The notes under the pieces were generated by a model, which worked only from the letters and a program-made list of their open reading frames with translations, was not told the DNA's origin and did no database searches. A DNA stretch of 64,000 bases, taken from Octopus vulgaris. Its lineage: Eukaryota. Positions 24,944 to 32,020 of the stretch are shown here, one piece after another (within the stretch, counting starts at the first letter, position 1; every line of letters begins with the position of its first letter). The position numbers and the translations under genes were made by a program. The DNA lies in the NCBI GenBank assembly GCA_951406725.2, contig OX597825.1, positions 40,424,001-40,488,000 on the forward strand, read 5' to 3'.

Positions 24944-27900
24944 ATTAACAATTAAGGAACGGCCATAATAGGCCATTCACCCACTAGAAATAACAGCCAA
25001 AGCTTCTACCGCAAATAAAGATTAATTCCGTAAACAGGAGAAAATTAAAAAAACATTTACCCTGTTATTTCTTGTACGGTATACCGTTTCATCTGCTGTT
25101 TAATGGTAAACTAACCTGATTAAATTAAATCAAGCCAATCTTCCATAAGCCCTCAGATTCTTCAGCAAGAAATAGCTCAAGTCGGAACAGATATTTACAC
25201 GAGGCATACCCAATCCTGCCAAGGCAATATCTGACCTAAAATTTTCAAATCGTCGCACTCGCGCCAAATTTATCGGCAGCAAATAAATCGTCGATTCCAT
25301 TACGGAATTAACCAAAAAATTCATAATTAATCAATATAGGGTGGCAAGGAAAATTTTGTAGAATTTTTTTGCCACCAGCGGCCCAGTGGGAAAAAATTAA
25401 ATAGTCATAGACCATTTTTAAGTTCAACATTAACAATTAAGGAACGGCCATAATAGGCCATTCACCCACTAGAAATAACAGCCAAAGCTTCTACCGCAAA
25501 TAAAGATTAATTCCGTAAACAGGAGAAAATTAAAAAAACATTTACCCTGTTATTTCTTGTACGGTATACCGTTTCATCTGCTGTTTAATGGTAAACTAAC
25601 CTGATTAAATTAAATCAAGCCAATCTTCCATAAGCCCTCAGATTCTTCAGCAAGAAATAGCTCAAGTCGGAACAGATATTTACACGAGGCATACCCAATC
25701 CTGCCAAGGCAATATCTGACTTAAAATTTTCAAATCGTCGCACTCGCGCCAAATTTATCGGCAGCAAATAAATCGTCGATTCCATTACGGAATTAACCAA
25801 AAAATTCATAATTAATCAATATAGGGTGGCAAGGAAAATTTTGTAGAATTTTTTTGCCACCAGCGGCCCAGTGGGAAAAAATTAAATAGTCATAGACCAT
25901 TTTTAAGTTCAACATTAACAATTAAGGAACGGCCATAATAGGCCATTCACCCACTAGAAATAACAGCCAAAGCTTCTACCGCAAATAAAGATTAATTCCG
26001 TAAACAGGAGAAAATTAAAAAAACATTTACCCTGTTATTTCTTGTACGGTATACCGTTTCATCTGCTGTTTAATGGTAAACTAACCTGATTAAATTAAAT
26101 CAAGCCAATCTTCCATAAGCCCTCAGATTCTTCAGCAAGAAATAGCTCAAGTCGGAACAGATATTTACACGAGGCATACCCAATCCTGCCAAGGCAATAT
26201 CTGACCTAAAATTTTCAAATCGTCGCACTCGCGCCAAATTTATCGGCAGCAAATAAATCGTCGATTCCATTACGGAATTAACCAAAAAATTCATAATTAA
26301 TCAATATAGGGTGGCAAGGAAAATTTTGTAGAATTTTTTTGCCACCAGCGGCCCAGTGGGAAAAAATTAAATAGTCATAGACCATTTTTAAGTTCAACAT
26401 TAACAATTAAGGAACGGCCATAATAGGCCATTCACCCACTAGAAATAACAGCCAAAGCTTCTACCGCAAATAAAGATTAATTCCGTAAACAGGAGAAAAT
26501 TAAAAAAACATTTACCCTGTTATTTCTTGTACGGTATACCGTTTCATCTGCTGTTTAATGGTAAACTAACCTGATTAAATTAAATCAAGCCAATCTTCCA
26601 TAAGCCCTCAGATTCTTCAGCAAGAAATAGCTCAAGTCGGAACAGATATTTACACGAGGCATACCCAATCCTGCCAAGGCAATATATGACCTAAAATTTT
26701 CAAATCGTCGCACTCGCGCCAAATTTATCGGCAGCAAATAAAACGTCGATTCCATTACGGAATTAACCAAAAAAATCATAATTAATCAATATAGGGTGGC
26801 AAGGAAAATTTTGTAGAATTTTTTTGCCACCAGCGGCCAGTGGGAAAAAATTAAATAGTCATAGACCATTTTTAAGTTCAAATTAACAATTAAGGAACGG
26901 CCATAATAGGCCATTCACCCACTAGAAATAACAGCCAAAGATTCTACCGCAAATAAAGATTAATTCCGTAAACAGGAGAAAATTAAAAAAACATTTACCC
27001 TGTTATTTCTTGTACGGTATACCGTTTCATCTGCTGTTTAATGGTAAACTAACCTGATTAAATTAAATCAAGCCAATCTTCCATAAGCCCTCAGATTCTT
27101 CAGCAAGAAATAGCTCAAGTCGGAACAGATATTTACACGAGGCATACCCAATCCTGCCAAGGCAATATCTGACCTAAAATTTTCAAATCGTCGCACTCGC
27201 GCCAAATTTATCGGCAGCAAATAATCGTCAGATATTGCCTTGGCAGGATTGGGTATGCCTCGTGTAAATATCTGTTCCGACTTGAGCTATTTCTTGCTGA
27301 AGAATCTGAGGGCTTATGGAAGATTGGCTTGATTTAATTTAATCAGGTTAGTTTACCATTAAACAGCAGATGAAACGGTATACCGTACAAGAAATAACAG
27401 GGTAAATGTTTTTTTAATTTTCTCCTGTTTACGGAATTAATCTTTATTTGCGGTAGAAGCTTTGGCTGTTATTTCTAGTGGGTGAATGGCCTATTATGGC
27501 CGTTCCTTAATTGTTAATGTTGAACTTAAAAATGGTCTATGACTATTTAATTTTTTCCCACTGGGGCTGGTGGCAAAAAAATTCTACAAAATTTTCCTTG
27601 CCACCCTATATTGATTAATTATGAATTTTTTGGTTAATTCCGTAATGGAATCGACGATTTATTTGCTGCCGATAAATTTGGCGCGAGTGCGACGATTTGA
27701 AAATTTTAGGTCAGATATTGCCTTGGCAGGATTGGGTATGCCTCGTGTAAATATCTGTTCCGACTTGAGCTATTTCTTGCTGAAGAATCTGAGGGCTTAT
27801 GGAAGATTGGCTTGATTTAATTTAATCAGGTTAGTTTACCATTAAACAGCAGATGAAACGGTATACCGTACAAGAAATAACAGGGTAAATGTTTTTTTAT

Positions 27901-30900: not shown

Positions 30901-32020
30901 AGTGGGTGAATGGCCTATTATGGCCGTTCCTTAATTGTTAATGTTGAACTTAAAAATGGTCTATGACTATTTAATTTTTTCTCACTGGGCCGCTGGTGGC
31001 AAAAAAATTCTACAAAATTTTCCTTGCCACCCTATATTGATTAATTATGAATTTTTTGGTTAATTCCGTAATGGAATCGACGATTTATTTGCTGCCGATA
31101 AATTTGGCGCGAGTGCGACGATTTGAAAATTTTAGGTCAGATATTGCCTTGGCAGGATTGGGTATGCCTCGTGTAAATATCTGTTCCGACTTGAGCTATT
31201 TCTTGCTGAAGAATCTGAGGGCTTATGGAAGATTGGCTTGATTTAATTTAATCAGGTTAGTTTACCATTAAACAGCAGATGAAACGGTATACCGTACAAG
31301 AAATAACAGGGTAAATGTTTTTTTAATTTTCTCCTGTTTACGGAATTAATCTTTATTTGCGGTAGAAGCTTTGGCTGTTATTTCTAGTGGGTGAATGGCC
31401 TATTATGGCCGTTCCTTAATTGTTAATGTTGAACTTAAAAATGGTCTATGACTATTTAATTTTTTCCCACTGGGCCGCTGGTGGCAAAAAAATTCTACAA
31501 AATTTTCCTTGCCACCCTATATTGATTAATTATGAATTTTTTGGTTAATTCCGTAATGGAATCGACGATTTATTTGCTGCCGATAAATTTGGCGCGAGTG
31601 CGACGATTTGAAAATTTTAGGTCAGATATTGCCTTGGCAGGATTGGGTATGCCTCGTGTAAATATCTGTTCCGACTTGAGCTATTTCTTGCTGAAGAATC
31701 TGAGGGCTTATGGAAGATTGGCTTGATTTAATTTAATCAGGTTAGTTTACCATTAAACAGCAGATGAAACGGTATACCGTACAAGAAATAACAGGGTAAA
31801 TGTTTTTTTTAAATTTTCTCCTGTTTACGGAATTAATCTTTATTTGCGGTAGAAGCTTTGGCTGTTATTTCTAGTGGGTGAATGGCCTATTATGGCCGTT
31901 CCTTAATTGTTAATGTTGAACTTAAAAATGGTCTATGACTATTTAATTTTTTCCCACTGGGCCGCTGGTGGCAAAAAAATTCTACAAAATTTTCCTTGCC
32001 ACCCTATATTGATTAATTAT
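24944..32020. mobile_element. Tandem array of a 485-bp hammerhead-containing unit (putative non-LTR retrozyme): ~4.7 units on -, ~9.9 units on +, head-to-head, inside (TA)n
   Basis: The same 64-aa ORF recurs every ~485 bp; orientation switches at 27227-27229; (TA)n on both flanks; each unit holds a type I HHR. Confidence 0.88.
27771..27879 (+). ncRNA. Type I hammerhead ribozyme, representative of 15 copies (+ starts 27288, 27771, 28272, 28758, 29242, 29742, 30227, 30712, 31197, 31682; - strand lower coordinates 25066, 25551, 26036, 26521, ~27005)
   Basis: Helix I TATTTCTTG/CAAGAAATA; core CTGAAGA (27780-86); helix II ATCTG/CAGAT closing a 58-nt hairpin; GAAA (27855-58); helix III CGG-TATA-CCG; predicted GUA cleavage after 27870. 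Confidence 0.85.

Follow-up and report, generated by a model that had tools for sequence, protein, structure and literature searches.

The 485-bp tandem repeat at 24944-32020 of the window (the whole 64,000-nucleotide stretch of Octopus vulgaris DNA analysed here) is a young insertion that belongs to a non-coding hammerhead repeat family dispersed over the genome. With a probability of roughly 0.75, we read this repeat family as a non-autonomous animal non-LTR retrozyme whose insertion is likely the work of Penelope-like element (PLE) enzymes, reverse transcriptase and endonuclease, probably with one circular monomer RNA as template. A sequence-only reading of the same DNA had proposed a non-LTR retrozyme, probably dependent on PLEs and possibly a rolling-circle copy, and this proposal is supported by the dispersed family, by insertion ends of the PLE type and by a bottleneck of one monomer. 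The repeat has in common with animal non-LTR retrozymes one hammerhead per unit, non-coding sequence free of LTRs, its size, a predicted self-paired circle and the presence of PLEs in the genome. The most informative feature, which the sequence-only reading missed, is the two-armed form of the insertion with its two fixed 3' ends.

Array layout and ribozyme

The array has a period of 485 and is flanked on both sides by (TA)n target tracts, at 24831-24945 on the left and at 32018-32070 on the right. The earlier description of a single array of about 7.1 kb, composed of 485-bp units inside (TA)n, was correct as to period, span and flanks; the array is however not single, as it is composed of two head-to-head arms of 4.7 and 9.8 units in opposite orientation, joined 5' to 5'. 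The left arm (24944-27229; five motifs) carries its ribozymes on the minus strand and extends from its outer (3') end, which lies at unit position +131 (the short site), to an inner (5') end at +268. The right arm (27227-32020; ten motifs), with its ribozymes on the plus strand, begins at an inner end at +325 and finishes, with the segment 31915-32020, at an outer (3') end at the long site, +237. The 5' ends of both arms overlap by three bases at the inversion joint (27227-27229). A reference monomer taken from cleavage site to cleavage site on the plus strand (29842-30326) measures 485 nt, with 36% GC and a longest ATG frame of 64 aa; GC content over all units is 35-37%. No tRNA head was found near the array, and it should be noted that a (TA)n target hides any target-site duplications. 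Two units of the array carry a private, T-rich insertion of 15-16 bases. It lies in unit 2 of the right arm (27892-27915, plus strand) and has a second copy 1471 bases on, at about 29363-29385; a genome-wide check found it in these two units, three units apart, and nowhere else. Part of the window array is thus probably the product of a later duplication, of repeated slippage or of assembly, and some later local duplication is likely.

A descriptor scan identified 15 type I hammerhead motifs in the array, 14 of which are intact. The unit hammerhead consists of a 9-bp helix I (TATTTCTTG/CAAGAAATA), the core CUGAAGA, a helix II (AUCUG/CAGAU) with an insert of 58 nt, GAAA, and a helix III (CGG-UAUA-CCG) with a palindromic loop, followed by a GUA cleavage site. 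In the example at 27771-27879 (plus strand) CUGAAGA lies at 27780 and the predicted cut falls after 27870, which agrees with the cleavage position named in the sequence-only reading. Further intact cores start at 27297, 28281, 28767, 29251, 29751, 30236, 31206, and 31691 on the plus strand, and those of the minus strand lie at 27103, 26620, 26135, 25650, and 25165. The sole damaged core, CUGAAGC, is at 30721-30727 on the plus strand; the claim of 15 near-identical complete units therefore stands for 14 of the 15 cores, and gives way at 30721 and at the two units with an insertion. Shuffled sequence yields such a motif once in 2000 trials under loose rules and never in 2000 under strict ones, and the helices, core and GUA site proposed in the sequence-only reading were all matched by the scan. 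The Rfam scan of the window returned no hammerhead match, neither at the gathering threshold nor at E<10, as had been anticipated for a standard hammerhead search; this is because helix II is long and not because a hammerhead is absent.

When the monomer was folded as a circle the minimum free energy was -146 kcal/mol (z -6.0; none of 60 shuffles as low), and this fold pairs the blocks which had led to the unit being called strongly self-complementary. The minimum fold of a 131-nt fragment is a three-way junction (z -5.3). Helix I is predicted to pair with a probability of just 0.00-0.26 in whole-unit folds. The ribozyme fold is dominant locally, and in longer sequence context its energy exceeds the minimum by 1-3 kcal/mol. 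The weak helix I may reflect poor activity, an off-switch by which a circle would be protected, or a shortcoming of the folding model; eight of nine predicted frog retrozymes reported in a recent preprint showed no cleavage in vitro (bioRxiv 10.64898/2026.07.22.740005). The descriptor scan found no hammerhead on the antisense strand of the unit, the cores being present on one polarity only. The term "viroid-like" used in the sequence-only reading is thus overstated, given that nothing points to replication from RNA to RNA.

Genome-wide family, insertion footprint and template

A DNA search of the animal's own genome (2.8 Gb) returned at least 253 matches from 40 of 1,372 candidates, distributed over many contigs. 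The exact core pattern has 2,131 matches genome-wide (1031+1100), as opposed to 0+0 for the reversed pattern, and since the first 100 of these fall into 43 loci, extrapolation gives roughly 900 dispersed insertions. Subfamilies have units of 485-493 nt and differ by up to about 12% from the window unit. The insertions that were mapped come from the window, the 39 top-scoring loci and 40 of the 43 positional loci. Among loci picked by overall similarity the core is kept in 117 of 118 full units; this is the fair figure, as the alternative count of zero variable sites among 11 core positions (P 0.014) is biased by half of its loci having been picked by a pattern that fixes the core. Covariation among diverged genomic copies, whose absence had been named as an argument against the ribozyme, is present. 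In 24 recurrent variants (of 68 distinct ones) 98.9% of cells pair, and two-sided changes affect 4 of 35 pairs, against 0-1 in slid controls. The four pairs are the closing pair of helix I and three pairs of helix II, corresponding to about three events, and no two-sided pair changes were found outside the ribozyme. All four bases occur at hammerhead position 7, the cut site reads either GUA or GUC, and the loop of helix III switches from UAUA to UGCA, both of which are palindromes. The conserved core and the covarying helices indicate that the ribozyme is under selection.

Part of the sequence words of the unit is also present in runs under two other organism codes. None of the runs listed with words of the unit is marked as RNA. 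Contigs from four of the 14 runs that are only guessed to be RNA wrap round the unit, a result which tandem DNA gives as well. In the contigs of one such run, compared with 29600-30084, loose ends contain closely spaced A>G changes on one strand, which affect the GAAA core as well, and clustered T>C changes on the opposite strand. Ordinary genomic variants account for most of the A>G and T>C differences in the run contigs, and no examined genomic unit carries over two such private changes within 25 nt. If the run is indeed RNA, the clusters hint at A-to-I hyper-editing of transcripts that fold back on themselves and stem from two-armed arrays.

Two-armed, head-to-head insertions account for 60 of the 83 mapped. 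Outer (3') ends fall at two sites in 131 of 143 cases; counted from the cleavage site, these sites are at about +125-136 and +230-245. (TA)n adjoins 135 of the 143. In 50 two-armed insertions both ends lie at the preferred sites (about +131 and +237), and 49 of these combine one short with one long end, the exception having two long ends; in 10 further two-armed insertions one end lies elsewhere. The window array obeys this pairing, with the short end on the left and the long end on the right. Inner ends are scattered over the unit and mostly share 0-6 overlapping bases or have a few extra bases. Inner ends seemed at first to be in excess at the cleavage site, which was an alignment artefact and disappeared on re-analysis (3 of 118 within 5 nt, 2.6 expected). 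As inner ends are not enriched at the cleavage site, the template was not a cleaved linear RNA.

An inverted 5'-truncated copy, a tail at one end and a (TA)n target form the signature of PLEs (PMC8557442), and all three are found here. The tail of PLEs corresponds to the stretch between two internal initiation sites, and a PLE cuts and extends both target strands in vitro (PMC11167929). We consider PLE-type mobilisation of the 485 family very probable. The array might alternatively be the tandem pLTR region of an autonomous PLE, as PLE pLTRs carry type I hammerheads and form tandem and inverted structures (PMC8557442), or an artefact of assembly, given that homopolymer lengths vary between units. 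Against this, no PLE frame runs into the unit in 79 loci, no pLTR homology was detected in comparison with three PLE families, the same end rule is seen at dozens of loci and in other families, and contigs from independent runs contain both the tandem joint and the long end with TA after it. This alternative is already largely refuted and we regard it as extremely improbable.

The template of the insertions can be addressed through locus-private substitutions. Of 172 in the sample, 140 occur in a single unit, 25 in part of the units and seven are fixed in all covering units, five of the seven spanning both arms. The private variant of locus L021 occurs eight times genome-wide, always in L021 and four times per arm, and that of L057 seven times, always in L057 and in both arms; a third tested variant (L116) also occurs at a second locus, in each of its two arms. 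For a new variant to be carried by all units of both arms, a bottleneck of one monomer is needed, which repeated copying of one circle supplies directly, and the locus-fixed variants of L021 and L057 thus point to a monomer template. Gene conversion, or a donor locus missing from the assembly, could also account for it.

A 17-unit array (L027:837-9168) carries two variants, at unit positions 253 and 349, which alternate as a mosaic along both arms. Neither this mosaic nor the pair of T-rich insertions in the window is expected from the copying of one monomer. A short PLE-derived element could have inserted as one or two units and then have grown as a satellite by unequal crossing over with concerted evolution, a local-growth route favoured in the 2026 preprint (bioRxiv 10.64898/2026.07.22.740005). 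The private insertion repeated three units apart and the 25 partial variants do show some local duplication or conversion, and units are 99.7% alike within a locus as opposed to 96.2% between loci. However, an insertion usually has multimers in both of its arms and intact outer ends, fixed variants extend across the inversion, and loci on different contigs share nearly unchanged haplotypes, which leaves little time for homogenisation; growth of this type is in our opinion a very unlikely origin of the arrays.

A less remote alternative, which we still consider unlikely, retains the same PLE mobilisation and replaces the circle by a long, uncleaved linear read-through transcript, with a ribozyme that is mostly silent or gated by protein. 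A PLE of the anole uses mainly uncleaved RNA and continues to insert when its ribozyme is mutated (PMC11167929), the folds of the whole unit predict a weak helix I, and inner ends that ignore the cleavage site fit an uncleaved RNA as well as a circle. A linear multimer would however transmit the differences between its units rather than fix a new variant in both arms, and the conserved core and covarying helices show selection on the ribozyme. We favour a circular template, with less assurance than the PLE-type mobilisation itself.

Under the circular reading the array would be transcribed, its ribozymes would cut the transcript to monomers and a host ligase would close the circle, by analogy with the animal retrozymes of PMC7229834. 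A PLE protein would cut both strands of a (TA)n tract, as described for PLEs in PMC11167929, and on the same model reverse transcription would start inside the RNA at two sites 106 nt apart, +131 and +237, one per strand. Each cDNA would round the circle a variable number of times and stop at random, and the two 5'-truncated ends would be united by end joining, often over a few shared bases, as the joints suggest. There is in our estimate an even chance that each two-armed array directly records one such event: starting from two fixed sites on one circular ribozyme RNA, a PLE enzyme would prime both of the cut strands and copy the RNA repeatedly in both directions. If true, these arrays would prove from genomic sequence that the circle of an animal retrozyme undergoes rolling-circle reverse transcription. 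They would also account for the tail of PLEs, and intact candidate helpers are present in the same genome.

Candidate helpers and neighbouring repeats

Two young PLE families with open frames of 727 aa and 811 aa are present in at least 150 near-identical copies each, the 150 best matches of either family being 98-100% identical; the two frames lie at L221:1195-3375 and, on the minus strand, at L222:1822-4254 of the loci examined. By the motifs given in PMC8557442 the 727-aa family is Hydra-like (RWK, DKT and CxCX5C) and the 811-aa family, which has an RVT_1 match, is Neptune-like (DKG and a CX4CxxC linker). Both end at two sites in (TA)n, and their inverted pairs combine a short with a long end in six of six and three of three cases, respectively (9/9 together). 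In a third PLE family, which has a long-helix-II hammerhead and open frames of up to 934 aa, the two ends are separated by about 150 nt. A 5'-truncated member of this third family lies on the minus strand of the window at about 59645-62030, with a YRDD reverse transcriptase end and a GIY-YIG-like domain; its long-helix-II hammerhead is at 59779 and its short end adjoins (TA)n. Comparison of the 485 unit with the 3' ends of the three PLE families gave no credible match, the best having an E of 0.02 and being out of register. A 148-nt alignment of 63.5% identity between the unit and the end of the Hydra-like PLE was rejected, as the cores were out of register. No examined family shares sequence with the 485 unit.

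The window contains a second hammerhead array (51807-52930) of 3.1 copies of a 360-bp unit between (TA)n tracts. This unit has the core CCGAUGA and a short palindromic helix III, and its sequence is unrelated to that of the 485 unit. The 360-bp family is represented across the genome by many copies of 100% identity, which end at about +178 and +222, and a short end is combined with a long one in all ten two-armed loci where the two ends could be seen. Immediately ahead of their short ends (31884-31914 and about 51816-51850 in the window), the 485 and 360 units each show a GCC...GGC hairpin, then GTYCCTT and a stretch resembling ATGTT. This common hairpin-GTYCCTT motif, noticed post hoc, is possibly a recognition signal. 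The motif has 7,244 matches, the first 100 of which belong nearly all to the 485 and 360 families, and 20 of its loci were without a PLE frame.

Other features of the window include a small head-to-head pair of minimal hammerheads between TA tracts at 33040-33450, with a plus core at 33379 and a minus core near 33225, which looks like another PLE-type mini-insertion. The minus-strand neighbour of the array at 32289-32480 is an abundant older repeat (2,422 candidates, about 93% identity) which ends in (TA)n and has CTGATGA and GAAA motifs without a clear hammerhead; it is a repeat separate from the 485 array. A GC-rich region resembling an LTR retrotransposon (39635-43394) carries gag-, protease-, RNase H- and integrase-like frames (rve E 3e-6). 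A mariner transposase fragment at 14025-14570 matches the Pfam family Transposase_1; a second transposase-like fragment (48670-49215), a PLE reverse transcriptase-like fragment (37483-37938) and a LINE-like end (8213-8830) are without Pfam match.

Comparison with known retrozymes and Penelope-like elements

The 485 family resembles the animal non-LTR retrozymes described by Cervera and de la Pena (2020; PMC7229834) in being composed of tandem non-coding repeats of <45% GC with one type I hammerhead per unit, in its self-paired predicted circle, and in the presence of PLEs in the same genome. It differs from them in unit length (485-493 nt, compared to 170-400 in the abstract of that work), in the 58-nt insert of helix II, and in inserting as two arms whose two fixed ends lie in (TA)n; the main text of PMC7229834 nowhere uses "inverted", "microsatellite" or "cephalopod". 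Contrary to the sequence-only reading, unit size is no argument for novelty, since published animal retrozyme units span 51-972 bp (bioRxiv 10.64898/2026.07.22.740005). No paper on a cephalopod retrozyme, or on tailed two-armed retrozyme insertions, was found in the full-text literature outside subscription journals, Repbase, Dfam and supplements.

The vertebrate retrozymes of Li, Clavereau and Pollet (2026; bioRxiv 10.64898/2026.07.22.740005) likewise have tandem type I hammerhead units and co-occur with PLEs. Their link to PLEs is composed of co-occurrence and pLTR homology, whereas here it is an insertion footprint and pLTR homology was not found; the preprint sampled no mollusc, and its main text describes neither tails nor inverted arms. 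It has been put forward that a PLE or LINE copies the circle by target priming (PMC7229834), and such spread on a circular template is proposed but not demonstrated in the main texts of that work and of the 2026 preprint. The tail and inverted arm of PLEs are themselves poorly explained so far. The 485 family is young and abundant, and offers predicted priming sites at +131 and +237, a rule of one site per strand, the prediction of a monomer circle as template, and two intact PLE proteins.

As in PLEs with an endonuclease (PMC11167929, PMC8557442), the insertions have a 5'-truncated inverted copy, a tail at one end, an AT-rich or (TA)n target, and a hammerhead upstream of two initiation sites. 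In contrast to these elements, the 485 family is devoid of a reverse transcriptase or endonuclease frame, its arms are multimers of a short unit, and its tail measures 106 nt, the usual length being 30-40. The palindromic loop of helix III would allow dimeric hammerheads, as in newt satellite 2 and the retrozymes of the axolotl (PMC7229834); helix III has 3-4 pairs here as opposed to 1-2 in those elements, and the hammerhead of the 485 unit may thus fold as a monomer.
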